Below are positions 4,020-61,307 of a DNA stretch of 64,000 nucleotides, piece after piece (position 1 is the first letter of the stretch; the number at the start of each line of letters is the position of its first letter). The translations under genes and the position numbers were made by a program. The notes below the pieces were generated by a model. That model was not told the origin of the DNA. It saw only the letters and a program-made list of their open reading frames with translations, and ran no database searches. Source of the DNA: Escherichia coli (GTDB taxonomy: Bacteria > Pseudomonadota > Gammaproteobacteria > Enterobacterales > Enterobacteriaceae); the NCBI RefSeq assembly GCF_048403405.1, contig NZ_CP183129.1; one strand, 5' to 3'.

Positions 4020-4051
4020 GCCCGGTATACAAGTGTATACCGGGCTTTTTT
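4020..4051. terminator. Intrinsic terminator hairpin between convergent parE and the receptor gene
   Basis: GC-rich inverted repeat cccggtataca/tgtataccggg followed by a T6 run. Confidence 0.6.
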
Positions 4052-4053
4052 GA

Positions 4054-6195
4054 TCAAAATTCCATTTTCACCGTGAATTGCACTTCACGCGGATCGCCAA
4101 TCTGATTCCCCAGATTATTTGTGGCGATGGAAGAGGTGTAATACGTTTTATCAAACAGGTTTTTGACGTTTAATTGCAGTGTGACCGGATACTGCAATTT
4201 CATTTTGTATGCGGCGAAGGCATCGGCAACGAAATAGCCTGGCAGATAATAGTCAGCCCCATTGGTTGCCGAACGACGGCTTACGCCATGTCCACCACCG
4301 CCAAACGTCAGTGTGTTATTGCCTGGCATGTTATGAATGTCATAGGTCAGGAATAGCGAACCGGTATGACGAGGAACATTCGGCAATGGTTTCCCTGCAT
4401 AATCAGGATCTTCCAGAACCTTAGCATCGGTATAGCCGTAGCTGGCAATGATATTAATGTTTTCAGTTAATGCTCCCGCAAGGTCGACTTCTACCCCTCT
4501 TGAACGAACGCGGCCTGCCGTTTTGGCGATGGTTTCATCACCAATACTTTCGGTATACAACACGTTACGTTTATGGATATCAAACAGCGCAATATCTGCG
4601 GTGATACCATCGAACAGCTCGAATTTTGCCCCGACTTCGTAAGCATTAGATGATTCCGGTGGAAGATCTCCGATGTAGCTGGCAATTGACGATTGCGGCA
4701 TAAATGTTTGCGAATAATTAGCAAATAAGGATACCGATGGCGTCAGTTTGTAGACTAACCCCAGTTTGGGCGTCCATTGTTCATCGCGGCTGTCAGTATT
4801 GACATTAAAAGGACGGCCTTTACCCGCATACTGCGTGTAATACTGATAGCGGATCCCGGCGACGGCAATCCAGTTATCGGTCAGATAGAGCGCGTCCTGT
4901 GCATAAGCTGAGTAGCTCTCCTGTTTGATCGTCTGATCGCTGTCCGACGCCGAGACAGTTGTGCATTTGCTGGTATTGCCGTAAACAGGGTTGTAGATAT
5001 TGAAATCTTTAGCGTTTTTACAGCGAATCATATCTGTGCGCAGAAGATCATAATATTCATATGACACCCCACCCAGAATCTCATTATAGAACCCAGCAAT
5101 ATCAACATTCCCTTGCAGATCCGCACGAGTAGCATGCATACGCTGGGTAGATCCCTGAGTTGCATCAACACGCCGTGTCAGCGTTCCTGTCGTTGCATCA
5201 TACGCGGTAACACGAGCCTGATTATCGCCGTATTTATCCTGGCTGTAGCTGTAATCAAAGCGCGCTGTCCACTGGCTATTGAGATGATATTCTGCGTTGA
5301 GTTGCGCCAGATCGGACTGACCATCTGTAATATTAAACGGTTCGTCAAAACGTATTTTTCGATCAACGTTTACGGGCTGTTTCGTCGTAAGGTCGAAAAT
5401 CGTTCCACGATCGAACGGAGTTTTATAGTCCCGATGGGAATAGAGCATGGTTACTGTTGCATTATCACCAAACCAGGTGAGTGACGGGGCAATAAATGTA
5501 CTGCGCTCTTTACCGAAGTTTCGCCAGTAATCTTCATCCTGCACTTCCCCCGTCAGGCGGTATGCCAGCTGAGTGCCTTCAATGGGACCTGTGATATCAA
5601 GTTGCCCAGTGCCTCCGCCAAAACTGGAGGACGTGGCTGAGACAGAACCATGGAATGTTTTTTCCGGGCGCTTGGTCACGACGTTAATCAATCCACCAGG
5701 ATCGAGAATGCCATACAGCGTGGAGGCCGGACCTTTTAGCACTTCCACACGTTCTGTGGCGGCGTTGAAACTGCGAGGAAGTACAGTTCGCAGGCCGTTG
5801 GTCATGATGGAGCCATCCCGGTTAGCACCAAACCCACGACGTACAAAGGCGTCCTGAGTTCCGCCTAATGTATTGGTCTGTACCACGTTACTGACGTTAT
5901 AAAGCGCTTCATCCAGCGTCGTTGCATTCTGATTTTCCAGAACCTGATCGCTAACCGTATTGACCACCTGCGGGATATCCAGCATCGGCATATCGGTTAA
6001 TGTCGCCATGGAGGTGCTCAGAGGTTGATAACCATCGGTCGCCTCAGTTGCGGTATTTGCATCCGCTGTAACAGTGATTGTTTCGCCATCTTTGGTCGTT
6101 GCAGTGTCGGTTGCATGAATCATTGGTGCTGCAAAGAGCAGTGAAAAGAGCGCCCGACCTTTGATTCCTGAGAATGAAGGTGTGAACTTAGCCAT
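4054..6195 (-). CDS. TonB-dependent siderophore outer-membrane receptor
   Basis: 713 aa; signal peptide; TonB-box-like ETITVTA; plug and beta-barrel features; C-terminal aromatic residue (ends ...KMEF); not part of the K-12 parE-ygiN junction as I recall it. Confidence 0.9.
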   Translation of the reverse strand: MAKFTPSFSGIKGRALFSLLFAAPMIHATDTATTKDGETITVTADANTATEATDGYQPLSTSMATLTDMPMLDIPQVVNTVSDQVLENQNATTLDEALYNVSNVVQTNTLGGTQDAFVRRGFGANRDGSIMTNGLRTVLPRSFNAATERVEVLKGPASTLYGILDPGGLINVVTKRPEKTFHGSVSATSSSFGGGTGQLDITGPIEGTQLAYRLTGEVQDEDYWRNFGKERSTFIAPSLTWFGDNATVTMLYSHRDYKTPFDRGTIFDLTTKQPVNVDRKIRFDEPFNITDGQSDLAQLNAEYHLNSQWTARFDYSYSQDKYGDNQARVTAYDATTGTLTRRVDATQGSTQRMHATRADLQGNVDIAGFYNEILGGVSYEYYDLLRTDMIRCKNAKDFNIYNPVYGNTSKCTTVSASDSDQTIKQESYSAYAQDALYLTDNWIAVAGIRYQYYTQYAGKGRPFNVNTDSRDEQWTPKLGLVYKLTPSVSLFANYSQTFMPQSSIASYIGDLPPESSNAYEVGAKFELFDGITADIALFDIHKRNVLYTESIGDETIAKTAGRVRSRGVEVDLAGALTENINIIASYGYTDAKVLEDPDYAGKPLPNVPRHTGSLFLTYDIHNMPGNNTLTFGGGGHGVSRRSATNGADYYLPGYFVADAFAAYKMKLQYPVTLQLNVKNLFDKTYYTSSIATNNLGNQIGDPREVQFTVKMEF

Positions 6196-6295
6196 TTAGT
6201 CTGTTATCCCAAAAACTCACGGATTGTCGTGAGTGAAAATTGTTTCTTGTTGCTCACTAAGCACTATCCGTTTGTTATTTCACCATCGGATATGT

Positions 6296-6314
6296 AATTG
6301 AGAATCATTCAACC
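6296..6314. promoter_or_regulatory. Possible Fur box in the divergent receptor/ABC-transporter promoter region
   Basis: gtaattgagaatcattcaa matches about 12 of 19 positions of the Fur consensus GATAATGATAATCATTATC, with a conserved AATCATT core; weak on its own. Confidence 0.3.
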
Positions 6315-6568
6315 ATGCGGTGATGTAGTAGTAAATGAGAAATAACAAAAAATTGCTACATGTGTTTTTATGAGAGGTTAATGCAATTCAATTGATGGTA
6401 ATTTATTAATATTTAATGGTTTTATTTTTATCTTTAAAAATATTTCACCTGTTATTTACCTTGTTTTTGTATGGATTTTAACTTCTTGACTACTACATTT
6501 TGTGGCGTCAAACTCTCAAAGGAGAATGAGTTTTATTTTTGTTTGTCTTTGATTAAGTTGGCGTACAC

Positions 6569-7378
6569 GTGGCACATAACGCAAAAGGGCAGGGGCTGAT
6601 CCTCGACAATGTTTCTGCCGGGTATCACAAGAAAATCATTGTTGATGGTGTTTCTTTCTCCGTTCCCACAGAAAAAATGACCGTTCTGGTTGGGGCAAAC
6701 GGCTGTGGAAAGTCGACGTTGCTCAGCACCATTGCACGTATCTTGCAACCTATGGGCGGCTCGATATTGCTGGATGGTAAAGCGATTCACGAGCAACCAA
6801 CGAAAGCGTTATCCCGTAGACTTGGGATCTTGCCGCAGTCGCCATTATTGCCGGAGGGCTTAACCGTTTATGAACTGGTGTCGCGTGGGCGTTTTCCCTG
6901 GCAGAATTTCATTCGTCAATGGAGCGACGCCGACGAGCAGGCGGTAGAAGAGGCCCTGAAATTAACCGGTACGCAGGAGTTTGCACATTTACCTGTTGAA
7001 AAACTTTCTGGTGGGCAGCGCCAGCGTTGCTGGATTGCGATGGTGTTGGCGCAAAAGACGCCTTATATCCTGCTGGATGAACCCACAACCTGGCTTGATT
7101 TACGTTATCAGGTTGAAATTCTTGAGTTATTACATGATTTAACGCGTCATCACGGGCGTACAGTCGTCGTGGTGTTGCATGATCTGAATTTTGCCGTCAA
7201 TTATGGCGATACGTTGATATTTTTACGCCAGGGGAAAGTGGTGCGTGTGTTGAATGAGGGGGAGCATTGCACGCCTGAGCTGGTAAAAGCTGTCTTTGAC
7301 GTTGATGTTCACGCATCAATAAATCCTCTGACGGGAAAGCCGTTCTTCATGCCGTTTCGTGGTGTAGAAAAAGTATGA
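6569..7378 (+). CDS. ABC transporter ATP-binding protein (iron-siderophore importer type)
   Basis: Walker A GANGCGKST, signature LSGGQRQR, Walker B ILLDEPT; GTG start. Confidence 0.9.
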   Translation: MAHNAKGQGLILDNVSAGYHKKIIVDGVSFSVPTEKMTVLVGANGCGKSTLLSTIARILQPMGGSILLDGKAIHEQPTKALSRRLGILPQSPLLPEGLTVYELVSRGRFPWQNFIRQWSDADEQAVEEALKLTGTQEFAHLPVEKLSGGQRQRCWIAMVLAQKTPYILLDEPTTWLDLRYQVEILELLHDLTRHHGRTVVVVLHDLNFAVNYGDTLIFLRQGKVVRVLNEGEHCTPELVKAVFDVDVHASINPLTGKPFFMPFRGVEKV

Positions 7379-8358
7379 TGCGCACAGGGCTGGTTACTGT
7401 AATTTTCCTCGCCTTACTGCTGGTGGGATGCGTGGTATATCCAGGGATTGGTGCCCGATTTATTGCACCACAAACGGTGTTGCAGGCATTTCTTCATTTT
7501 GAACCGCAAAACTTCGATCACAACGTAATTGTAAGACTCCGTTTGCCGCGTTTAGCGGCAGCATTGCTTACCGGTGCTTCTCTTGGAGTTGCTGGTGCTT
7601 TGTTGCAGGCTGTCATTCGTAACCCATTGGGGGAGCCACATATTTTAGGCTTAAATGCCGGAGCCGCTCTTGCTGTCGTTGCTGCCACTGCGCTTGGGCT
7701 GGCCTTTCCGGTTGGACGCCCACTGCTGGCATCTACGGGCGGCGCGTTATTGTTCCTGTTGATATTGCTGCTTTCCTCCGCAGGGCGTTCAGGGTTAACG
7801 CCAATGAAAGTTACTTTATGCGGCGTGGCGCTATCGGCGTTCGTGTCCTCAATAACGGCTGCAATCCTGATTCTTGACGAACAAACACTGCTGGCGATGC
7901 GGACATGGCTAGCAGGTGATTTAGCGGGGCAGGATTGGGTGACGCTGGGTACGTCCGCCTGGTTTTCTCTGGGGGGGGTTGTGTTAGCCATTTACCTTGC
8001 GCCCTCTCTTAACATGTTGGCACTGGGTGATCGCATGGCGCAGGGGCTGGGCGTCTCGGTACTCCGCACGCGAACATTCACTCTGCTTGCGATCGCGTTG
8101 CTCTGTGGCGCAGCCGTATCGATTGCTGGCCCCATTGGTTTTGTCGGTCTGCTAGTACCGCAGATTGTCAGGCGTCTGGTATCAGCGGATCTGCGCGTTC
8201 TGCTCCCTCTTTCAGCTTGTGTCGGCGCGCTTTTGTTATTACTGGCAGATATTATTGCCCGGACGCTTTTCACGCCCCATGAGTTAGCGACCGGTGTCAT
8301 GACGGCGTTAGTTGGTGCGCCTGTTTTTGTCATTATGGCGACGAGGATGTTCAAATGA
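7375..8358 (+). CDS. ABC transporter permease, FecCD/BtuC family
   Basis: 327 aa polytopic membrane protein; 4-bp overlap with the upstream ATPase gene. Confidence 0.9.
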   Translation: MMRTGLVTVIFLALLLVGCVVYPGIGARFIAPQTVLQAFLHFEPQNFDHNVIVRLRLPRLAAALLTGASLGVAGALLQAVIRNPLGEPHILGLNAGAALAVVAATALGLAFPVGRPLLASTGGALLFLLILLLSSAGRSGLTPMKVTLCGVALSAFVSSITAAILILDEQTLLAMRTWLAGDLAGQDWVTLGTSAWFSLGGVVLAIYLAPSLNMLALGDRMAQGLGVSVLRTRTFTLLAIALLCGAAVSIAGPIGFVGLLVPQIVRRLVSADLRVLLPLSACVGALLLLLADIIARTLFTPHELATGVMTALVGAPVFVIMATRMFK

Positions 8359-9404
8359 GTCGGATAATGAACGTCGGGCTACGTCCACTACGTGTTGGTA
8401 AGTTTTCGACACTGGTACGCCCTAAAAATCTGGTGTTGCTTGGTGGGCTGTTTCTGTTTGCGGTTGGAATACTGATATTCGGTCTGATGCATGGTTCTTT
8501 TTCTGTCCCGGCATCGGAAGTAGGACGAGCGTTGTTTGCTCCAGAAAACGTAAGCACAGACGCACGTTATATTGTGCAGGATATTCGCTTGCCGAGAGTC
8601 ATCATGGCATTGCTATGCGGAGCCATGTTAGGTATGGCGGGGGCCGCGATGCAATCCATTGCGCGTAACGGCCTTGCCGATCCTGGTTTAATCGGCGTCA
8701 AAGAAGGATGTAGCGTGGCGGTGCTGTGGCTGATTTTCCAGTTTCCAATGCTGGGAATGTTCTGGCGTCCAGTGGCTGGTCTTGCTGGTGGCTTGTTGGT
8801 GGCTTTAATCGTGATTTTTTGTGCACGCGATATTTCCCGCCCGCGATTTGTTCTGATTGGTATTGGTGTTTCCTGGTTTTTCGCCGCCGGTATCGGTGTA
8901 TTTATGACCACTGCAGATGTTCGAGATGTACAAACTGCATTGATGTGGTTATCGGGAAGCCTGCATGCAGCTAACTGGATGTTAGTCGGTATTTCAGCCT
9001 GTTGGATGTTGCCAGCCGCTCTTTTATTGCTGTTCACCGCCAGGACGGCGGATATCGCTCTGCTTGGTCATCAGGTTGCAACCGGGTTAGGGGTGAATAG
9101 TTCTCGTCTGGCGTTGTTACGTGTCGCCGCACCAATAATCCTGACAGCCGTCTGCGTTTCGTGTGTTGGTAACATCGGTTTTGTCGGATTGATAGCACCC
9201 CATATATCACGTTTTATTCTACGTGGCGGGCAGACGACATTACTGCTGGGGAGCGCCGTATCGGGGGCGTTGTTAGTCATCCTGGCGGATAGCATTGGTC
9301 GTTTGGCTTTTTTGCCTTTGCAACTGCCTGCCGGAATCATTATTTCATTGATTGGTGGACCATTCTTTTTGCTACTGCTCTGGCAGCGCAGGAACAGTTT
9401 TTAA
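8355..9404 (+). CDS. ABC transporter permease, FecCD/BtuC family (second subunit)
   Basis: 349 aa polytopic membrane protein, paralogous to the preceding permease; 4-bp overlap. Confidence 0.9.
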   Translation: MSRIMNVGLRPLRVGKFSTLVRPKNLVLLGGLFLFAVGILIFGLMHGSFSVPASEVGRALFAPENVSTDARYIVQDIRLPRVIMALLCGAMLGMAGAAMQSIARNGLADPGLIGVKEGCSVAVLWLIFQFPMLGMFWRPVAGLAGGLLVALIVIFCARDISRPRFVLIGIGVSWFFAAGIGVFMTTADVRDVQTALMWLSGSLHAANWMLVGISACWMLPAALLLLFTARTADIALLGHQVATGLGVNSSRLALLRVAAPIILTAVCVSCVGNIGFVGLIAPHISRFILRGGQTTLLLGSAVSGALLVILADSIGRLAFLPLQLPAGIIISLIGGPFFLLLLWQRRNSF

Positions 9405-9414
9405 TGGGAGTTAT

Positions 9415-10362
9415 ATGCGTTTATTTTTTTCTCTGCTGATACTGTTGTCATTCTTTGCCCGCGCGACAGAACCTGTTCAGGTCTTTACTGATGATTTAGG
9501 GCGCAAAGTCACTGTTCCTGCTCATCCAAAGAGAATTGTCTCTTTACACGATCTTGATATCACTATTCCTCTGATTGAGCTCGGTGTACCTCCTGTCGCC
9601 AGCCACGGACGAACCCGGCCTGACGGTAGCCATTTCATTCGATCAGGCGCGTTATTGACAGGTGTCGACTTTGATAATTCATCGATCGCTTTTATTGGCA
9701 CCGCTGATATTGATATTGAAGCGATTGTGGCGGCAAAGCCTGACCTGATCATCACAGAACCGACCCGTAATACGCCCATTGAACAACTGGAAAAAATTGC
9801 GCCCACGGTGAGCATTGATCATCTCAAAGGAGGCGCGCCAGAAATCTACCGCAAGCTGGCAGAACTTACAGGAACGCAGTCGCAGCTGGCGATACTTGAA
9901 CGCCGCTATCAGGCACAAATCAATGCGCTGAAGGCGACGCTGGACAGCCAAAAAATAACGGTATCGGTGATTCAGGCAAATCAGGGAAAAATTAATGTGA
10001 TGCATAGCTATCATTCGCTGGGGCGGGTATTACGCGATGCTGGTTTTCGCTTTCCGCCGCTGATTGAGAGCATTCCTGAAGGTGGGCGAATGGATGTGAG
10101 CGCAGAGCGTTTACCTGAACTGGATGCCGATTTTGTTTTTGCAACCTGGCGCGGTGACACCGGTGGTAAACCTCAGGATGAGCTGGCAGCAATGGAAAAA
10201 GTCATGCCGGGATGGTGTCAGTTTCTGACGGCCTGTCGTTCCGGGCGCTATGTGCTGATTTCTCGTGAAGAGGCGATTTCTAACTCCTTTGCATCTCTGG
10301 GGCTGATGGCTGCGCAGATACAATCACAAATTGCGGGACGACCTCTACCGGAGGCTAAATGA
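9415..10362 (+). CDS. Periplasmic siderophore-binding protein of the ABC importer
   Basis: Start moved to the in-frame ATG at 9415, which has a GGGAG ribosome-binding site and begins a typical signal peptide (MRLFFSLLILLSFFARA); the tracked ORF begins upstream at 9352. Confidence 0.85.
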   Translation: MRLFFSLLILLSFFARATEPVQVFTDDLGRKVTVPAHPKRIVSLHDLDITIPLIELGVPPVASHGRTRPDGSHFIRSGALLTGVDFDNSSIAFIGTADIDIEAIVAAKPDLIITEPTRNTPIEQLEKIAPTVSIDHLKGGAPEIYRKLAELTGTQSQLAILERRYQAQINALKATLDSQKITVSVIQANQGKINVMHSYHSLGRVLRDAGFRFPPLIESIPEGGRMDVSAERLPELDADFVFATWRGDTGGKPQDELAAMEKVMPGWCQFLTACRSGRYVLISREEAISNSFASLGLMAAQIQSQIAGRPLPEAK

Positions 10363-11246
10363 TCCAGAAAGACAAAACGCGGGTTGATATTTATGGTGAG
10401 CGTTTTCGCACTCGCGCGAGTCAGTTAACGCCTGGGTTAAGAACTGTCGCAAGCTACATTAATGAGCATCGTGAAGTGGTACTCGAGCAAACGGCGATGG
10501 AAATTGCGGCCACGTTGAACACTTCCGATGCCACAGTTATCAGGGCTATACAGGCTCTGGGGTTTGCCGGGCTGCGTGATCTGAAACGCACACTGGAACA
10601 GTGGCTTGGTCCAGCCCTTAGTTCCAGCGAAAAGATGTCTACGACGGTGAGTAACTTGACGAGCGATGTTAACACCGCAATCGACTTTGTTCTTGAAGGG
10701 CATTTGTATACTTGTAATGTCCTGTCAGAGCCTGAAAACCGCCACGCGCTTGCGCAAGCTGTAGCGTTGTTGGTGCAGGCACGGCAAGTCGCTATTTTTG
10801 GCATTGGCGCTTCGGGTATCCTGGCGGACTATACCGCACGACTATTCAACCGCATAGGTTTGCCTGCCACGGCACTAAACCGTACGGGTATTGGCCTTGC
10901 CGAGCAACTGATCGCGCTTCAACGTGGCGATGTTCTGATCATGATGGCGCAAAAATCTGCGCACCGGGAAGGGCTGACAACGCTTCGTGAGGCGAGGCGG
11001 CTGGGGATCCCTGTTATTTTGCTGACAAACGCGCTGGATTCACGTTTTAGCAAAGACGCCAGTATCGTGATTCATGTTCCGCGCGGGGATGAAAGGGGGA
11101 AAACGCCACTACATGGTACGGTATTGTTGTGCCTGGAAATGATTGTTTGGTCGGTGGCTTCCGCGATGCCGCAGCGTGCGGTTAAAACCATTAAGCGAAT
11201 TAACGATTTCCATCGGGGTTTGAAAACGGGAAGAAAGAATGGCTAA
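10359..11246 (+). CDS. RpiR/MurR-family transcriptional regulator (helix-turn-helix plus SIS domain)
   Basis: 295 aa; N-terminal HTH and C-terminal sugar-isomerase-like domain pattern; start overlaps the binding-protein stop (ATGA). Confidence 0.8.
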   Translation: MIQKDKTRVDIYGERFRTRASQLTPGLRTVASYINEHREVVLEQTAMEIAATLNTSDATVIRAIQALGFAGLRDLKRTLEQWLGPALSSSEKMSTTVSNLTSDVNTAIDFVLEGHLYTCNVLSEPENRHALAQAVALLVQARQVAIFGIGASGILADYTARLFNRIGLPATALNRTGIGLAEQLIALQRGDVLIMMAQKSAHREGLTTLREARRLGIPVILLTNALDSRFSKDASIVIHVPRGDERGKTPLHGTVLLCLEMIVWSVASAMPQRAVKTIKRINDFHRGLKTGRKNG

Positions 11247-11254
11247 TCTGACCT

Positions 11255-12217: not shown

Positions 12218-12278
12218 TTTTTAACCTCAAGGTGAGACGTTTGTCGACTATAGTACGTCACAGAGCGGTACGGTGAAA

Positions 12279-12318
12279 TTAGCAAAATGTGCAAAGTCTT
12301 TTGCTAATTTAGCAAAAG
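12279..12318. promoter_or_regulatory. Candidate operator: perfect 10-1-10 palindrome plus a third half-site, upstream of mdaB
   Basis: cttttgctaa-t-ttagcaaaag at 12298-12318 is a perfect inverted repeat; a third copy, ttagcaaaat, lies at 12279-12288; located 60-100 bp upstream of the mdaB start codon. Confidence 0.4.
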
Positions 12319-12466
12319 TCTGATCTTGCTCTGATTCACCGATGCGGGATAAATATTTTCTGAAAATGACAATACTGAAATCAACTTCCTATAAGTTCCC
12401 ACAGGAGAGATGTATTATGTAAATGATAAAGTAGTTTTTCGGAAAAAATAATCATGGAGAATATAT

Positions 12467-12946
12467 ATGTCAAATATCATATACTTATCAATTAAAGGAA
12501 AAACACAAGGTTTGATCTCTGAGGGCTGTGGTTCGTATGCATCTATTGGTAATAAATATCAAATAAATCATGTGGATGAAATTTTTGTTTTACAGTTCGA
12601 CCATTCTTTAAGTCGAGAATATAATGTAGTGCATCATCCCATAAAATTTTACAAGCCAATAGATAAATCCTCTCCTTTATTAAATGCTGCTCTTTCTGAA
12701 AATGAAGAGTTATCAGCTGTATTTAATTTTTATAGAATTAATTCTGGCGGTTGTATTGAAAGGTTTTACACAATTGAATTGCAAGGGGCATATTTATCGA
12801 ATATTCTGACTTGTTATCCACACTCAATTACACATGCGGGTAATCAACCGGAAGAGGTCATTGTTCTTAATTATAAAAATATAACATGGAAGCACCATAT
12901 CGCGAGTACGGAATCATATAGCTGTTGGGAAGAAAGGATTTTTTAA
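12467..12946 (+). CDS. hcp: Type VI secretion Hcp-family protein (orphan hcp)
   Basis: 159 aa; Hcp-like blocks IYLSIKGKTQGLISEGC, HHPIKFYKPIDKSSPLL and NYKNITWKHH; GGAGA ribosome-binding site 6 nt upstream; AT-rich gene. Confidence 0.8.
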   Translation: MSNIIYLSIKGKTQGLISEGCGSYASIGNKYQINHVDEIFVLQFDHSLSREYNVVHHPIKFYKPIDKSSPLLNAALSENEELSAVFNFYRINSGGCIERFYTIELQGAYLSNILTCYPHSITHAGNQPEEVIVLNYKNITWKHHIASTESYSCWEERIF

Positions 12947-12948
12947 AT

Positions 12949-13659
12949 ATGAAAAGCGATCTCACTATAAAAAATAGATATTGTACAATTCCACAAACGA
13001 AGTTCCGTAAATGGGATGAAATGGACGTTTTACTCTGGAAGTTAGGAAAAAATGATTCGCGTCGCCGTTCAGGAGTATATTATTTAAATGCTTATAAAGA
13101 TGCATATGTACAATATAATAGGGACAAAATAATTAAACATGCATATGCCGCAGGGATTCGTCCAGAGTTATTGGGCGGCGTGGCCTGGATTGAGTCAGGA
13201 GGTATGCCTGAAAATTATAAGTTTCAGATATATGAAACAAAAAGAATGATCGGATCGTTAGATATGCCTGAAAATAAAACATCATTTGGCTCAATGGGTA
13301 TACAAATACGAACCGCAGCGATTACTCTAGGCCTTGACCCTTCAGAATTAACTACCAGAAATCAGTTAGAGTTAGCGACATGCCTGATGGAAGATGATTT
13401 TACCTTTAAAATTGCTGCTACTCATTTAAGAGATCTTGCCCTTTTTGATTATCCCTCTTCGGCAACACTGTATATGACGAATGAGCAGTATATTATGGCT
13501 GGTATTAGATATAATCGTGGTGTTGAACGAGATTTGGGTTTTTTTATTTATTTAATTAATAATTTGCCTGCGCGTGATACAGATGATTATAAATTCATCT
13601 CTTATGGTATGAGGTTGTTAGAGATTAGAGAACATATCAAAAAATTGATCAATGAGTAA
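12949..13659 (+). CDS. Hypothetical protein with lysozyme/lytic-transglycosylase-like motifs; candidate Hcp-associated cell-wall-targeting effector
   Basis: Start set at the ATG at 12949 (GAAAGGA ribosome-binding site) 2 nt after the hcp stop; motifs WIESGG, FGSMGIQI and IRYNRG resemble the soluble-lytic-transglycosylase E-S / GLMQ / AYNAG pattern; function is inferred. Confidence 0.5.
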   Translation: MKSDLTIKNRYCTIPQTKFRKWDEMDVLLWKLGKNDSRRRSGVYYLNAYKDAYVQYNRDKIIKHAYAAGIRPELLGGVAWIESGGMPENYKFQIYETKRMIGSLDMPENKTSFGSMGIQIRTAAITLGLDPSELTTRNQLELATCLMEDDFTFKIAATHLRDLALFDYPSSATLYMTNEQYIMAGIRYNRGVERDLGFFIYLINNLPARDTDDYKFISYGMRLLEIREHIKKLINE

Positions 13660-13665
13660 TCAGAG

Positions 13666-13995
13666 ATGTTAAAAAAACAACTACTATCAATATTTGAAGC
13701 ACTATTATACATAATGCTTACTTATTGGTTAATAGATGCTTTTTTTGCTTTCAATAAGTATGACTGGATGCTTGAGTCGGGAGACAATATTTGCAGTATA
13801 CCTTCCGTTTCAGGCGAAGATCGTATATTGCAAGCAATGATTGCAGCATTTTTTCTTCTGACGCCACTTATTATTCTTATCTTAAGAAAACTCTTTATGC
13901 GGGAAATGTTCGAGTTTTGGCTATATGTATTCACGCTCGTTATTTGTTTGGTTTGTGGTTGGTGGCTTTTTTGGGGACGGTTTATATTTTGCTAA
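13666..13995 (+). CDS. ygiZ: Small inner-membrane protein (about 3 transmembrane helices); K-12 YgiZ occupies this position; candidate immunity protein
   Basis: 109 aa with three hydrophobic segments; starts 7 nt after the preceding gene; K-12 has the about 110 aa membrane protein YgiZ between mdaB and qseC (recollection); the immunity role is inferred. Confidence 0.6.
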   Translation: MLKKQLLSIFEALLYIMLTYWLIDAFFAFNKYDWMLESGDNICSIPSVSGEDRILQAMIAAFFLLTPLIILILRKLFMREMFEFWLYVFTLVICLVCGWWLFWGRFIFC

Positions 13996-14005
13996 TAGTA
14001 AAATC

Positions 14006-14033
14006 TATGAGAGTCGTTTTAACGGCTCTCATA
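14006..14033. terminator. Hairpin between convergent ygiZ-like gene and qseC
   Basis: Inverted repeat tatgagag(tcg)/(cgg)ctctcata with a 6-nt loop; a U-tract follows only on the minus-strand transcript. Confidence 0.4.
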
Positions 14034-14043
14034 GACAGAGAAG

Positions 14044-15393
14044 TTACCAGCTCACCTTCGCCTCAAATCCACCTTGTTCCGCATTCCCAAACTCAACATT
14101 CATGCCATGCAATTTGGCGATTCGCTGGACAATCGATAGCCCAAGTCCACTGCCGGTAGCGGTTTGTCCGGGTGGGCGATAGAAGCGTTCGCCAATTCTC
14201 GCCAGTGCCTCTGGCGTCACACCGGGGCCGTTATCCCTCACGATGAAATTTTCGGCATTCAGCGTGACGTCCACCACGCTGCCCTGTGGACTGTAGCGCA
14301 CGGCGTTATCCAGAAGGTTTCGTACCAACAAACTTAGCAACAGCGGTTGTCCGGTGCGTTTGATGCCGTGGGCATTGAGTGTCAGTCGCACGTCAATTTT
14401 CGCCTGCTGCGCCGTGTGGTAAATATCCATCACCGATGATTGCAGGAGATCTTCAAGCGGGATCTCCGCGACGTCCTGAAGGTTATCCAGTGAGTCCAGC
14501 CGCGATAGCGTGAGCAGTTGATCAACCAGACGAGTAGCACGATCGATTCCGGAATGTAATTGAAGCAGCGCTTTTTTCCGCGCCTGCGGATCATCGTCAG
14601 AGAGCTGCGCAACTTCGGTTTGCACTTTCAGCGCCGTTAACGGGCTACGTAGTTCGTGAGCTGCGTCGGAGGTAAAACGTCGTTCACGAACCATCATCGC
14701 ATGTGTGCGGGCGAACAGTTGATTCAACGACTCAACCAGTGGACGCACTTCGCTGGGTACGCCCGTCGCGTTTAGTGGTTTTTCCGAGTCAGGGTCACGC
14801 ATACGTAGTGCCAGCGCCAGTTTGTTCAGCGGCGCGAGTTCACGACCCAGTAGTACCATCATGATGATTAACATAATCGGCAGTGCGACAAGCCACGGGA
14901 TCAATTGCCCGGCAACAATCGCCAGCGCCATGTCTTCGCGGTATTCCCATTCCTGACCAACAACGATGCGATATTTGCCATCAGGTGAGGTCATCCAGAC
15001 AAAACGCCAGGGATCGTCTTCACCGACCAGTTGCCCGTCAGCAAAACCTTCCCGTTGATAGCTATAGGGAATATCTTCTCCGTTATCGCCATCGTTAAGG
15101 ACCATTCTGCCGTCGTGGGTAAAGATGGCAAAGGTCAGCGCATCGTCATCAACATGACCGTGTTTTAATTTATTTGGCGTCTGTGCCATGCGATCTGCCG
15201 CGTTGATTTCGTTGAGATCGAGCGTACTTAACCGCTTGGCAAACAGCATCAGTTGGGTGTCGAACAACTCATCGACGTTATCCGTTGTTTGTTTCCAGGC
15301 GACAAAGCTGGAAAGCAGCCAGGTCACTGAGGCCAGAATTAAAAAGATTAGCGTCAGCCTGACTCGCAGACTAAGACGTTGGGTAAATTTCAT
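14044..15393 (-). CDS. qseC: Sensor histidine kinase QseC
   Basis: 449 aa; two transmembrane segments; H-box HELRSPL; ATPase domain; 4-bp overlap with qseB. Confidence 0.95.
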
Positions 15394-16645: not shown

Positions 16646-17128
16646 ATGACAAACCTGACACTGGATGTAAATATTATCGATTTCCCATCAATCCCTGTGG
16701 CGATGTTGCCGCACCGCTGTAGCCCTGAGTTGCTCAACTACAGCGTGGCGAAATTTATCATGTGGCGTAAAGAGACGGGGCTTTCTCCTGTTAACCAAAG
16801 CCAGACTTTTGGCGTCGCCTGGGACGACCCTGCCACCACCGCACCGGAAGCGTTTCGCTTTGATATCTGCGGCAGCGTTAGCGAACCGATCCCCGATAAT
16901 CGTTATGGTGTGAGTAATGGTGAACTTACCGGTGGACGTTATGCTGTGGCCCGCCATGTTGGCGAGCTGGACGATATTTCACACACGATATGGGGCATCA
17001 TTCGCCACTGGCTACCTGCAAGCGGCGAGAAAATGCGTAAAGCACCGATTCTGTTTCACTACACCAATCTTGCCGAAGGAGTGACAGAGCAGCGACTGGA
17101 AACGGATGTTTATGTACCGTTAGCGTGA
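16646..17128 (+). CDS. ygiV: GyrI-like effector-binding domain protein YgiV
   Basis: 160 aa; synteny next to ygiW/qseBC. Confidence 0.88.
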   Translation: MTNLTLDVNIIDFPSIPVAMLPHRCSPELLNYSVAKFIMWRKETGLSPVNQSQTFGVAWDDPATTAPEAFRFDICGSVSEPIPDNRYGVSNGELTGGRYAVARHVGELDDISHTIWGIIRHWLPASGEKMRKAPILFHYTNLAEGVTEQRLETDVYVPLA

Positions 17129-17236
17129 TGGAGAATCTTTACCGGAGTGTGAGCCACATCACTCGCGATAAGTTTGAGCGAACAATGCCACAGGCGTATT
17201 GTTGTCGGGCTTATAATTTCTCCGGTAAGGAATACC

Positions 17237-18844
17237 ATGTATACGCGAAATTTATTATGGCTGGTCAGCCTGGTAAGTGCGGCTCCTCTCTACGCTGCTG
17301 ACGTTCCCGCCAACACACCGCTCGCCCCGCAACAAGTCTTTCGTTACAACAATCATAGCGACCCAGGTACGCTCGACCCGCAAAAGGTAGAGGAGAATAC
17401 TGCCGCGCAGATTGTGCTGGATCTGTTTGAAGGTCTGGTATGGATGGACGGTGAAGGCCAGGTGCAGCCCGCTCAGGCTGAACGCTGGGAGATACTGGAC
17501 GGCGGCAAGCGCTATATTTTCCATCTGCGTAGCGGTTTGCAGTGGTCAGACGGTCAGCCTCTGACGGCAGAGGATTTTGTCCTCGGCTGGCAGCGCGCGG
17601 TTGACCCGAAAACGGCAAGCCCTTTTGCTGGCTATCTGGCACAGGCGCACATTAACAATGCCGCGGCTATTGTTGCGGGTAAAGCAGATGTTACATCGCT
17701 GGGTGTCAAAGCGATGGATGATCGTACTCTTGAAGTTACGCTTGAGCAGCCGGTTCCTTGGTTCACGACGATGCTCGCCTGGCCGACGCTGTTCCCGGTT
17801 CCCCATCATGTCATCGCGAAATATGGCGATAGCTGGAGTAAGCCTGCGCATATGGTTTACAACGGTGCCTTTGTGCTTGAACAGTGGGTAGTTAACGAAA
17901 AGATTACTGCACGCAAAAATCCAAAGTACCGCGATGCGCAACATACAGTATTGCAACAGGTTGAGTATCTGGCGCTGGATAATTCGGTCACCGGCTATAA
18001 CCGCTATCGCGCGGGAGAGGTCGATCTCACCTGGGTTCCGGCGCAGCAAATTCCCACCATTGAAAAATCACTGCCTGGCGAGCTACGAATTATCCCGCGT
18101 CTGAACAGCGAATATTACAACTTTAACCTTGAGAAACCGCCATTTAACGATGTGCGGGTGCGTCGGGCGCTATATCTTACGGTTGATCGACAGCTTATTG
18201 CGCAAAAGGTACTGGGGTTGAGAACGCCCGCAACCACGCTGACGCCGCCAGAGGTAAAAGGCTTTAGCGCGACGACGTTCGATGAACTGCAAAAGCCAAT
18301 GAGTGAGCGTGTCGCGATGGCAAAAGCCTTGCTGAAACAGGCGGGATACGACGCCTCTCATCCGCTACGCTTTGAGCTGTTCTACAACAAGTACGATCTG
18401 CATGAAAAAACCGCGATAGCGTTGTCTTCCGAATGGAAAAAATGGCTGGGTGCACAGGTGACGCTGCGCACAATGGAGTGGAAAACTTATCTTGATGCCC
18501 GACGAGCCGGTGATTTCATGCTGTCGCGGCAGTCGTGGGATGCGACGTATAATGATGCTTCCAGCTTCCTGAACACGCTCAAAAGCGATAGTGAAGAAAA
18601 CGTCGGTCACTGGAAAAATGCGCAGTATGACGCCTTACTAAACCAGGCCACGCAGATCACTGATGCGACAAAGCGTAATGCGTTGTATCAGCAGGCAGAA
18701 GTGATCATCAACCAACAGGCACCGCTGATTCCTATCTACTATCAGCCGTTAATCAAACTGCTTAAACCCTACGTTGGCGGTTTTCCGCTGCATAATCCCC
18801 AGGATTATGTCTACAGCAAAGAGTTGTATATCAAGGCACATTGA
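17237..18844 (+). CDS. ygiS: Periplasmic solute-binding protein YgiS (family 5, oligopeptide-type)
   Basis: Start set at the internal ATG at 17237, giving 535 aa with a signal peptide (MYTRNLLWLVSLVSAAPLYA). Confidence 0.9.
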   Translation: MYTRNLLWLVSLVSAAPLYAADVPANTPLAPQQVFRYNNHSDPGTLDPQKVEENTAAQIVLDLFEGLVWMDGEGQVQPAQAERWEILDGGKRYIFHLRSGLQWSDGQPLTAEDFVLGWQRAVDPKTASPFAGYLAQAHINNAAAIVAGKADVTSLGVKAMDDRTLEVTLEQPVPWFTTMLAWPTLFPVPHHVIAKYGDSWSKPAHMVYNGAFVLEQWVVNEKITARKNPKYRDAQHTVLQQVEYLALDNSVTGYNRYRAGEVDLTWVPAQQIPTIEKSLPGELRIIPRLNSEYYNFNLEKPPFNDVRVRRALYLTVDRQLIAQKVLGLRTPATTLTPPEVKGFSATTFDELQKPMSERVAMAKALLKQAGYDASHPLRFELFYNKYDLHEKTAIALSSEWKKWLGAQVTLRTMEWKTYLDARRAGDFMLSRQSWDATYNDASSFLNTLKSDSEENVGHWKNAQYDALLNQATQITDATKRNALYQQAEVIINQQAPLIPIYYQPLIKLLKPYVGGFPLHNPQDYVYSKELYIKAH

Positions 18845-59589: not shown

Positions 59590-61307
59590 GCCAGGGATTC
59601 CTGCACATGAAGGCTTGCAGCATAAGCCTTCTGATAACGTTTTTTCGCTTCCGCACGGGCAGGCTTGCCGGAGGACGTTCGGGGAATACTGTGGGGCGGC
59701 AACAGATCGATAGCCGCGGTCACGCCAAATTCGCTTTGGATCCGTGCTGCCAGCGCGTGGATAAGCTGCCCGCGACGTTCTTCATCGCTGATCCGACACT
59801 GGATCTGCAAAATGATTTTTTCCTGGGCGGTAACAAAAGCAATCGCATCGCCAGAATGAATTTCCGGTTCCTGTTCCGCAATATATTCAATATCCTGCGG
59901 CCAGATATTACGGCCACGAATAATAATCAGATCTTTAATGCGTCCGGTGACATACAGATAACCGTCCAGCAGATAACCGAGGTCGCCGGTGTCTAACCAG
60001 CCCGTCGCGGCAATCTCGTCTTGCGAAACCTGGTCGCCAAAGTAACCGCTCATCAGGCTGGGGCCGGAGATGCAAATATGGCCTACCACACGTTCCGCGA
60101 CAGGTATACCTGCTTCATTGCGGATTTCAATGCCATGTTCCGGCAACGCTTTACCGCAGTTGACGAAAGTCGATACGGCGCGTGTTTCAGCATCCGGCGC
60201 GACGGCTTTGCCCTGATATTCGAGGATGTCGCGATCCACTTCGTTAACCACAACCCCGGAAGCTTCATCAGAGAAGCTGACAGCCAGCGCATTTTCTGCC
60301 AGTCCGTAGCACGGCATGAAAGTTTTATCGTCAAAGTTGACCTGACGGAAACATTCAGCGAATTGATGGAGTTGTTCTGCGGAGATGGGTTCTGCACCAA
60401 TACCAGCGACGCGCCAGCAGGAAAGATCCAGTTCAGCGAGATCTTTTTCATTCACGCGGCGCTGGCACAATTCATAGCCAAACGGCGGCGCAACGGAAAC
60501 GGTGCCGCGATTTTTACTGATCAATTTAAGCCATTGCAGAGGACGCATGGCAAAATCCTGAGTGCGCAAATAATCTACTGAAAGCTGCGTGGCGACGGGG
60601 GTCAGGAGAAAGCCGACCAGTCCCATATCATGGTAGAAAGGCAGCCAGGAGACGCAGCGGTCGCCAGGGCGTAATTTAATGCCATCGTGGCTTATAGCAC
60701 GTAGATTAGCCATCACTTCGCGATGGGTGATAATGACGCCACGGGGAAAACGGGTGCTGCCGGAGGTGTACTGGAGGTAGGCGATATCGTTCGGAACTGG
60801 ACGCTGGAGCGCAACATCGGCTTCCGGTAATGCCTTAAACCAGGCGTGGCTTAAAACATGTAATTCGGGGTTGTTATGCGTAGCGGCATTGACCAGTGGC
60901 AACCACTCATCACCAGTGATAATGGCTGCGGGCTGGCAACTTGCCAGTAAACCCTGCAGTTTGGCGCTCCAGGAATCCCGCTGACCGACGCCCATTGGAA
61001 TCGCCAACGGGACGGCGACTAAGCCGGCATACTGGCAGGAAAAAAAAGCCTCTACGAACCCGCTACTGGTTTCGGCAATCAGCGCCACGCGATCGCCTTT
61101 TTTCAGGTTCAGCGATAACAACCGCTTCGCACCAGCTTCGGCACGCGCTTTTAACGTCTGATATTCCAGTTGATCTTCAAGTTGGCAACGTCTGTCATAA
61201 AAATTCATTCCGGCGCTACTCAGAGCGGCGTAGTCCAAAGCATCAACCAGCGTTGGAAAATCGGCATAGCGCATAGGTAGGGAATGCGTAAAGATTTTAT
61301 TAGACAT
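59586..61307 (-). CDS. Fatty acyl-AMP ligase / acyl-ACP synthetase (AMP-binding superfamily)
   Basis: AMP-binding motif YTSGSTRFPRGV; 4-bp overlap with the downstream reductase gene; start set at the first ATG (61307) because the tracked ORF begins with TTG at 61334; a start at 61274 is also possible. Confidence 0.82.
   Translation of the reverse strand: MSNKIFTHSLPMRYADFPTLVDALDYAALSSAGMNFYDRRCQLEDQLEYQTLKARAEAGAKRLLSLNLKKGDRVALIAETSSGFVEAFFSCQYAGLVAVPLAIPMGVGQRDSWSAKLQGLLASCQPAAIITGDEWLPLVNAATHNNPELHVLSHAWFKALPEADVALQRPVPNDIAYLQYTSGSTRFPRGVIITHREVMANLRAISHDGIKLRPGDRCVSWLPFYHDMGLVGFLLTPVATQLSVDYLRTQDFAMRPLQWLKLISKNRGTVSVAPPFGYELCQRRVNEKDLAELDLSCWRVAGIGAEPISAEQLHQFAECFRQVNFDDKTFMPCYGLAENALAVSFSDEASGVVVNEVDRDILEYQGKAVAPDAETRAVSTFVNCGKALPEHGIEIRNEAGIPVAERVVGHICISGPSLMSGYFGDQVSQDEIAATGWLDTGDLGYLLDGYLYVTGRIKDLIIIRGRNIWPQDIEYIAEQEPEIHSGDAIAFVTAQEKIILQIQCRISDEERRGQLIHALAARIQSEFGVTAAIDLLPPHSIPRTSSGKPARAEAKKRYQKAYAASLHVQESLA

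Follow-up and report, generated by a model that had tools for sequence, protein, structure and literature searches.

We investigated ygiZ, a gene for a small membrane protein of the DUF2645 family, in a stretch of 64,000 nucleotides from Escherichia coli (contig NZ_CP183129.1, assembly GCF_048403405.1; hereafter the window). Comparative genomics supports ygiZ (window positions 13666-13995, plus strand) as the immunity gene for an SLT/Tse3-like toxin that is encoded directly upstream and is predicted to be delivered by a type VI secretion system (T6SS); we put the probability of this reading at about 0.78. The copy carried by E. coli K-12, which stands there without the toxin gene, is most likely an orphan immunity gene. 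The decisive support is gene order: the adjacency of DUF2645 genes to the toxin gene is conserved across genomic contexts, and it is mainly this comparison of sequences that suggests an immunity role for YgiZ.

A three-gene cassette between mdaB and qseC

The ygiZ open reading frame (ORF) comprises 109 codons, from ATG to TAA. Its product has three hydrophobic segments (approximately residues 6-29, 54-73 and 83-104), neither a signal peptide nor a lipobox, and is predicted to cross the inner membrane three times. Helices 1 and 2 are separated by an acidic loop of 24 residues, NKYDWMLESGDNICSIPSVSGEDR, and helices 2 and 3 by a short basic loop, RKLFMRE. Strain U1 of E. coli has this region at 100% identity, and there NCBI's PGAP labels the gene "ygiZ: DUF2645 family protein", and the Pfam family DUF2645 (PF10840) is precomputed for close YgiZ homologues.

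The gene is the last of three co-directional genes on the plus strand. The first, hcp (12467-12946), encodes a protein of 159 amino acids (aa) that matches TIGR03344 (TssD/Hcp) with an E value of 4.5e-59 and Hcp proteins of the PDB with E values of 1e-20 to 1e-21; we regard it as a dedicated ("orphan") Hcp, the presumed carrier of the toxin. Two nucleotides after its stop begins a 236-aa ORF (12949-13659), the predicted toxin, and 6 nt after the stop of that ORF begins ygiZ, the predicted cognate immunity gene by its PF10840 family membership, its K-12 orthology and its conserved position. The mdaB-hcp intergenic region (12218-12466, plus strand) is the presumed promoter region of the cassette, and its first part, 12218-12394, is common to K-12. 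A scan for promoter-like hexamers in the islet showed no enrichment over shuffled sequence, so that no promoter was assigned and we claim no internal ygiZ promoter for the cassette form; a terminator scan of the islet found none.

The three genes share an AT-rich islet between mdaB and qseC (12323-14044, no strand assigned), with a GC content of 0.29-0.39 inside and about 0.5 outside. The GC content and the GC content at third codon positions (GC3) were 0.321 and 0.244 for hcp, 0.354 and 0.291 for the 236-aa gene, and 0.342 and 0.327 for ygiZ, compared with 0.507 and 0.582 for mdaB and 0.528 and 0.562 for qseC. As ygiZ is AT-rich like hcp and the toxin gene, unlike mdaB and qseC, it is part of the foreign islet. 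O157:H7-type genomes lack the entire stretch, and in the alignment with the O157:H7 locus mdaB joins qseC directly. A sequence-only reading of the window had described a three-helix membrane protein of 109 aa directly 3' of a candidate effector in an AT-rich islet, and the ORF, the hydropathy and the GC content all agree with this description. That reading had named a core-like GC content and codon usage as what would detach the gene from the islet; instead, both GC and GC3 of ygiZ match the islet.

DUF2645 genes accompany the toxin across genera and delivery systems

In 17 of the 20 loci examined, a DUF2645 gene, or a DUF2645-like ORF of about 100 aa with three helices, lay directly 3' of the toxin gene, with a spacing that ranged from a 4-nt overlap to an 8-nt gap. 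Triads of hcp, toxin and DUF2645 genes were found in Escherichia, Citrobacter, Pseudocitrobacter, Pectobacterium, Serratia, Chania and Rahnella, with unrelated flanks. The Citrobacter triad occupies the mdaB/qseC locus, as in E. coli; that of Pectobacterium lies between pagP and an eamA-family gene, that of Serratia on conjugative plasmids, that of Chania on an island flanked by integrase and insertion sequences, and that of Rahnella on a megaplasmid, where the toxin is just 40% identical. Further triads were present in Pseudocitrobacter, in another Serratia, in another Pectobacterium and on a metagenomic contig. All Hcp-linked relatives had a 159-aa Hcp upstream, the triad toxins had about 237 aa and their DUF2645 proteins about 110 aa, and PF10840 was also detected in the downstream genes of Citrobacter, Pectobacterium, Serratia, Chania and a locus with a PAAR-fused toxin. 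What had been called the typical position of an immunity gene in the window therefore recurs in every Hcp-linked relative examined, in seven genera.

The association is with the toxin domain rather than with hcp. Serratia sp. JSRIV002 has kept the toxin-DUF2645 pair while hcp lies on the other side, on the opposite strand. At the PAAR-fused toxin, which lacks an hcp gene, the toxin stop overlaps the start of a 100-aa DUF2645 protein, and a 310-aa toxin relative (P0127) is followed by a 98-aa protein with a weak DUF2645 match. In these last two cases DUF2645 is decoupled from hcp yet coupled to the toxin domain. An effector gene beside a tube or spike gene is what we found in the window, where hcp ends immediately before the toxin gene, and the PAAR-fused version provides a second such arrangement.

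Across seven triads, identity was 56-88% for Hcp, 57-77% for the toxin and 33-66% for DUF2645. Co-divergence in which DUF2645 changes fastest is a typical immunity-protein pattern, and would fit such a role for YgiZ.

More distant loci contain similar small proteins. Proteins of 98-103 aa are encoded directly 3' of an orphan Rhs C-terminal fragment, of plasmid copies in Cronobacter and of a Streptomyces gene for a 460-aa toxin-domain protein, which has a WXG-like gene upstream. In all of them a basic N-terminus precedes three helices, of which the first two are joined by an acidic loop and the last two by a basic one; Pfam recognized no DUF2645 in these look-alikes of the Rhs, Cronobacter and Streptomyces loci. 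DUF2645 and the look-alikes may form one ancient immunity family that travels with the SLT/Tse3-like toxin across delivery systems, as Hcp cargo and PAAR or Rhs fusions in Proteobacteria and as proteins of the WXG100, type VII secretion kind in Actinobacteria. We consider this extension tentative and rather unlikely.

Two further observations concern the surroundings of the cassette. In Chania multitudinisentens (L016, 9287-10314), about 3 kb 3' of the cassette, a pesticin-domain gene (PF16754) is followed by a weakly LprI-like gene of the lysozyme-inhibitor type; the two may form a further toxin-immunity pair of this island that is directed at the wall. The 353-kb E. coli plasmid NZ_MG591698.1 carries a toxin gene at 60214-60921 (98% protein identity), the sole plasmid-borne copy among the E. 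coli records.

The 236-aa protein is a predicted peptidoglycan toxin

Annotation of the 236-aa protein as a single sequence returned nothing from Pfam (even at E 10, SLT, PF01464, included), NCBIfam, a phmmer search of the PDB or PADLOC, and a profile of 23 toxin sequences returned nothing from the PDB. Read from the sequence, its N-terminus has no signal-like hydrophobic segment. Citrobacter, Pectobacterium, Erwinia, Serratia and Chania have close homologues, with 54-74% identity, and a profile search of 1.84 billion representative proteins retrieved 375 clusters at E<=1e-3. In 62 of the 122 well-covered hits, the toxin domain was C-terminal, behind more than 100 extra N-terminal residues. 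The fused N-terminal modules included PAAR, Rhs/YD repeats with a DPxG junction, eCIS_core (DUF4157), WXG100, PG_binding_1 and OmpA. Fusions to PAAR, Rhs, eCIS_core and WXG100 modules mark a polymorphic toxin domain, and those to peptidoglycan-binding modules point to the cell wall as its target.

An AlphaFold2 model built from a 102-sequence alignment had a mean predicted local distance difference test score (pLDDT) of 94.6 and a predicted template modelling score (pTM) of 0.91; an earlier model from a shallow 23-sequence alignment (pLDDT 58.5) was discarded and played no part in the fold search. In the fold comparison the model scored 13.1 with Pseudomonas aeruginosa Slt, 12.7 with E. coli MltE, 12.6 with Tse3, the T6SS muramidase effector of P. 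aeruginosa, 12.1 with MltC, 11.7 with Slt70, 10.5 with goose-type lysozyme and 7.8 with Tge2. Foldseek likewise placed Tse3 and MltE at the top, while relatives of the toxin in AFDB were mostly "uncharacterized", a few being automatically labelled as SLT-domain proteins. The candidate effector of the sequence-only reading can thus be described as a genuine polymorphic toxin domain with a predicted lysozyme/lytic-transglycosylase fold close to that of Tse3.

The near-invariant residues of the family (K50, E82, G84, G85, T111, S112, G114, Q119, R187, Y188, N189, G191, Y219 and G220) resemble the E-S, G-x-x-Q and Y-N-x-G motifs of family 1 lytic transglycosylases. In the alignment with Tse3, Glu82 (within WIESGG) falls on Tse3 Glu250, reportedly the residue that was mutated to inactivate Tse3, and TSFGxxxxQ falls on TSIGLGQ. 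The predicted structure therefore has what defines the Tge1/Tse3 type, a lysozyme-like fold with a putative catalytic glutamate. At the level of sequence, the relation is distant: Pfam SLT was detected at E<=1e-3 in just 2 of the 102 distant family members, against a strong match at the level of the fold, and no significant similarity to a described Tge family was found, the best profile-to-PDB match being at E 0.1. On the basis of the model, we conclude that the protein is a predicted peptidoglycan toxin of the lysozyme/SLT superfamily that would cleave glycan strands in a Tse3/Tge1-like manner, and its sequence places it outside every described Tge family.

A very common "partial" E. coli form of the toxin (P0087; 205 aa, 1,674 member sequences) ends in FFIYLINN and lacks the last 31 residues, including the conserved Y219 and G220. 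Either broken contigs or an actual truncation, carried by a large lineage, may account for it.

K-12 ygiZ and the three states of the locus

As the source of K-12 YgiZ we used the K-12 derivative NEB Turbo, whose mdaB/qseC slot contains ygiZ alone. Aligned over the full 109 residues, K-12 YgiZ and the window protein share 91% identity (E 1e-66). The orthology that the sequence-only reading had raised as a possibility is borne out by this identity and by the shared slot. The first eight codons differ between the two genes (MLKQKIKT versus MLKKQLLS).

We then surveyed 5,426 complete E. coli genomes at megablast sensitivity, at which more diverged toxin copies could escape. The DNA of ygiZ was found in 4,597 genomes, 4,580 of which covered at least 80% of the query, and hcp-plus-toxin DNA in 1,261, essentially full length in 1,260; none of the other genomes contained a partial hcp or toxin remnant. 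The locus accordingly has three states. The full cassette is present in 1,261 genomes (23%), among them ST131, Nissle 1917 and ABU 83972; ygiZ stands alone in about 3,336 (61%), such as K-12, 55989, EC93 and NCTC86; and about 829 (15%) have neither, as in O157:H7, where mdaB abuts qseC. K-12 ygiZ is thus an intact orthologue of an effector-linked gene in a genome without the cognate toxin, which is what defines an orphan immunity gene. We take the K-12 lineage to have no T6SS at all. The insertion sequence IS1 has replaced most of ygiZ in one genome and split the gene in another (L030, 788-1485, and H15); such events are routes to the absence of ygiZ that are independent of a clean O157:H7-type deletion.

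In genera other than Escherichia, a DUF2645 gene rarely stands without the toxin gene. In a scan of a genome collection, run with a six-sequence alignment, orphan DUF2645 genes were found in two of seven species-representative loci, those of E. whittamii and Serratia oryzae. The E. whittamii gene has an intact ORF in the K-12-type haplotype, with the same N-terminus, and all 318 bp upstream of it align at 88.8% identity, among them the 141 bp that are specific to K-12-type loci. In S. oryzae (L040, 2285-6307), a Chania-like DUF2645 gene without hcp or toxin lies beside a ParE/RelE-like two-gene module and a gene for a 614-aa TraG/VirD4-like coupling protein, and looks like a mobile orphan immunity gene on a conjugative element.

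Other loci appear to decay toxin first. One Citrobacter locus (L005, 4297-4994) has its toxin frameshifted into ORFs of 150 and 90 aa beside an intact DUF2645 gene; a JGI metagenome sequence (P0086) encodes a 325-aa in-frame Hcp-toxin fusion, formed by a deletion, beside an intact immunity gene; and an E. coli-type toxin variant has an internal deletion. The C-terminal third of YgiZ (window 13920-13995) exists as two alleles, LYVFTLVIC...FC-stop and VYVFSLGIC...FCY-stop, each found in both cassette and orphan haplotypes, which implies recombination inside ygiZ. From these comparisons, the most economical history is that the cassette entered as a unit, that hcp and toxin were later lost once in the Escherichia lineage, and that recombination followed.

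Predicted topology and mode of neutralization

The N-terminus and loop 2 of YgiZ are basic and loop 1 is acidic, a charge pattern that, by the positive-inside rule, predicts a cytoplasmic N-terminus and an external C-terminus. The most conserved part of DUF2645, NKYDWMxExGDxxCS, is the predicted periplasmic loop. All 10 DUF2645 members compared have a cysteine in this loop and another at or near the C-terminus; the charge pattern would put both in the periplasm, making a disulfide plausible.

We propose the following mechanism for what is probably a horizontally mobile T6SS cassette of three genes. The toxin would ride in or on its dedicated Hcp, and a T6SS would fire it into the periplasm of a neighbouring cell, where it would cut glycan strands, Glu82 serving as general acid in a muramidase or lytic-transglycosylase reaction, and cause lysis. 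YgiZ would be anchored in the inner membrane, its N-terminus on the cytoplasmic side, with the conserved acidic 24-residue loop, NKYDWMLExGDxxCSxP, and the C-terminal tail in the periplasm, and a Cys43-Cys109 disulfide would probably tie loop to tail. The exposed part would neutralize the toxin, and would most likely do so by attaching to the cleft of the toxin and blocking it; to occlusion by the loop we give somewhat less than even odds. Alternatively, YgiZ could shield a membrane-proximal substrate. Orphan ygiZ of the K-12 type would then protect against toxin-carrying strains, about 23% of E. coli, and against Citrobacter. Gene order, composition, orthology, the modelled toxin fold, the fusions of the toxin domain, conserved adjacency, co-divergence and the population census come directly from the analysis; we infer T6SS delivery, periplasmic action, topology, disulfide, neutralization and the loss rather than gain of hcp and toxin.

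Two variants of this mechanism would accommodate a membrane-anchored inhibitor. The disulfide-locked loop of YgiZ could be a minimal lysozyme-type inhibitor, for which Ivy, a lysozyme inhibitor with a disulfide-constrained inhibitory loop, offers a comparison. Alternatively, the toxin could act close to the membrane, on the outer surface of the inner membrane, its substrate being for instance lipid-linked or nascent glycan strands.

The same topology bears on a different role, in which YgiZ would be an accessory of the enzyme, a membrane partner, holin-like or other, that serves the export, activation or positioning of the lysozyme-like protein. A three-helix protein of about 100 aa beside a lysozyme-fold enzyme does resemble a holin-endolysin cassette. 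Nevertheless, the small gene lies 3' of the enzyme gene and not 5', YgiZ ends five residues after helix 3 (GRFIFC) without a charged cytoplasmic tail, and the PAAR, Rhs and WXG100 fusions and the adjoining Hcp already give the enzyme an export route. The roughly 3,336 genomes that keep ygiZ without the enzyme fit an antidote, not a helper, and we regard an accessory role as very improbable. A phage class I holin (N-terminus out, C-terminus in, charged C-terminal tail, gene upstream) was also considered as a candidate identity and rejected: ygiZ lies downstream, and its charges predict the N-in, C-out orientation.

Weighing the immunity reading

Several observations weigh against ygiZ as the immunity gene of a T6SS toxin. 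The first 50 kb of the window contain no T6SS core genes. The assignment of the toxin to the Tse3/SLT group leans on a predicted structure, and the best PDB match of the family profile, Tse3, is the statistically weak one given above. In three distant loci (one linked to an extracellular contractile injection system (eCIS), one GC-rich Rhs locus and one giant Nostoc protein) no small membrane ORF lies downstream of the toxin domain. Moreover, it would be unusual for a wall glycosidase to be inhibited by a polytopic membrane protein that exposes no more than about 24 loop residues. The known immunity proteins of T6SS peptidoglycan glycosidases (Tsi3/Tgi1, Tgi2 and TsiV3) are soluble periplasmic proteins or lipoproteins. 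Toxicity and secretion of the toxin and protection by YgiZ are themselves predictions from sequence comparison.

The history of the locus also has a gap. Positions 1-177 of the K-12 intergenic region after mdaB correspond to window 12218-12394 (94%), and the next 141 bp, upstream of K-12 ygiZ, matched no cassette locus by blastn or tblastx. A local alignment of these 141 bp with the toxin gene gave a score that 37 of 500 shuffles reached, hence no significant similarity. The deletion of hcp and toxin is thus not directly documented by a scar. The proposal that K-12 carries the leftover of a lost module stands as far as ygiZ without a toxin is concerned, within the sensitivity of megablast; for its other half, the loss itself, no toxin remnant was detected in K-12, and the direction is drawn from the distribution.

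The remaining points concern how well ygiZ is kept. About 15% of E. coli genomes lack the gene, and some have it disrupted by IS1. For orphan ygiZ the ratio of nonsynonymous to synonymous substitution rates (dN/dS), calculated from small substitution counts, is 0.11-0.29 among E. coli sequences and 0.42 in the comparison with E. whittamii, far above the values for the neighbours mdaB (0) and qseC (0.06). Together with the truncated forms that are common in Shigella, this would suit a gene that once conferred immunity and that, in K-12-type orphans, is now a functionless relic drifting to loss; the regulation of K-12 ygiZ within a set of BglJ-RcsB loci that includes H-NS-repressed ones (PMC3950696) may be read in the same way. 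Against such a relic, coverage reaches at least 80% in 4,580 of the 4,597 carriers, dN/dS stays under 1 and is much like that of cassette-linked copies, the conserved orphan haplotype extends to E. whittamii, where the ORF is intact, and selection for immunity is plausible as the toxin circulates in 23% of E. coli. We therefore judge a relic unlikely. By these comparisons orphan ygiZ appears to be maintained, with an ORF that is intact in nearly all carriers, and is not a wreck.

What is reported about K-12 ygiZ suggests yet another role. BglJ-RcsB, acting at a mapped binding site, activates a promoter that belongs to the gene itself (PMC3950696), and the sole reported phenotype of ygiZ, which also counts against an immunity function, is that overexpression raises tolerance to the terpene sabinene and restores cell shape (PMC7181518). 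YgiZ might accordingly be a general envelope or stress membrane protein of the Rcs/BglJ regulon, involved in solvent tolerance and only incidentally adjacent to a toxin, and its retention in thousands of toxin-free genomes would agree with this. However, DUF2645 is limited to a few Enterobacterales genera and, outside Escherichia, is nearly always joined to the toxin gene in unrelated contexts, plasmids included; ygiZ has the foreign composition of the islet and diverges in step with the toxin; and a housekeeping role would not predict its absence from 15% of E. coli, including O157:H7. A general envelope function thus seems highly improbable. None of the three rivals covers both the pairing of toxin and DUF2645 across delivery systems and the retention of ygiZ alone in thousands of genomes.

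Other variable features near the islet

A second variable islet lies near that of mdaB and qseC. Between parE and ygiN (window about 4050-11250; NZ_CP041359.1 573105-580297) we found genes for a TonB-dependent siderophore receptor, a four-gene Fec-type ATP-binding cassette transporter and a MurR/RpiR regulator; parE adjoins ygiN in K-12, and O157:H7 has the transporter genes. On the other side (window 16646-18844), ygiV is directly followed by ygiS and the toxin-antitoxin pair mqsR/mqsA is absent, whereas a K-12-type contig (L009, 7982-9475) has mqsR/mqsA in between.

Relation to known systems and significance

T6SS effector-immunity pairs, orphan immunity genes included, are an established kind of system, within which the toxin and immunity families described here, and an immunity protein embedded in the membrane, would be new. 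The closest comparison is Tse3/Tsi3 (Tge1/Tgi1) of the P. aeruginosa H1-T6SS, to which the toxin has no significant sequence similarity. Tse3 has about 400 aa, compared with the 236 aa of the toxin described here, which is encoded behind its own hcp. Tsi3 is soluble and periplasmic, whereas YgiZ is predicted to pass the inner membrane three times and to expose a short loop; it has no detectable relation to Tsi3, nor does it have the soluble or lipoprotein form of immunity protein that goes with the Tge families. Family 1 lytic transglycosylases (Slt70, MltE and MltC; PF01464, glycoside hydrolase family 23) are housekeeping autolysins; the protein studied here differs in being a toxin module, predicted to act as a hydrolase or lytic transglycosylase, and in having an additional conserved N-terminal region of about 60 residues.

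In form, YgiZ is closer to the polytopic immunity proteins of pore-forming colicins and membrane-targeting T6SS toxins, which have about 100-180 aa, pass the membrane several times and are encoded beside the toxin. Such proteins neutralize membrane-inserting toxins within the bilayer. Unlike those toxins, the one described here has a wall-aimed enzyme fold and no predicted membrane-inserting segment.

Orphan immunity genes are kept in T6SS islands after the toxin has been lost or replaced, with presumed protection from toxin-carrying kin (PMC9796082). The concept, familiar from auxiliary clusters of Vibrio cholerae, an hcp island of Pantoea and the acquired interbacterial defence clusters of Bacteroidales, matches ygiZ, and the S. 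oryzae gene on its conjugative-element-like region mirrors the mobile orphan immunity genes. Unlike orphans in T6SS islands, ygiZ is a single gene at a core-genome locus, the majority state of its species, with a dedicated regulated promoter. The literature searched, which did not cover subscription journals, contained no mention of DUF2645 and no link of ygiZ to T6SS or immunity, and the pair was not found in the supplements of a structural catalogue of T6SS effectors and immunity proteins. The hcp2B operon of avian pathogenic E. coli and the UMN026 system ECUMN_0231-0233 were considered as the same system and set aside, being different loci.

If the immunity reading is true, it gives a function to K-12 ygiZ and to the Pfam family DUF2645, and it brings to light an uncharacterized family of peptidoglycan-targeting toxins that is used by several secretion systems. 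It would explain the three-state polymorphism between mdaB and qseC as strains that are armed and immune (23%), immune only (61%) or neither (15%), and would predict who can kill whom among gut E. coli, with K-12 as a simple test bed in which the recipient has or lacks the antidote from the outset. It may also reveal an unusual way to neutralize a lysozyme-like enzyme, as immunity conferred by a membrane protein would imply a new mode of action.

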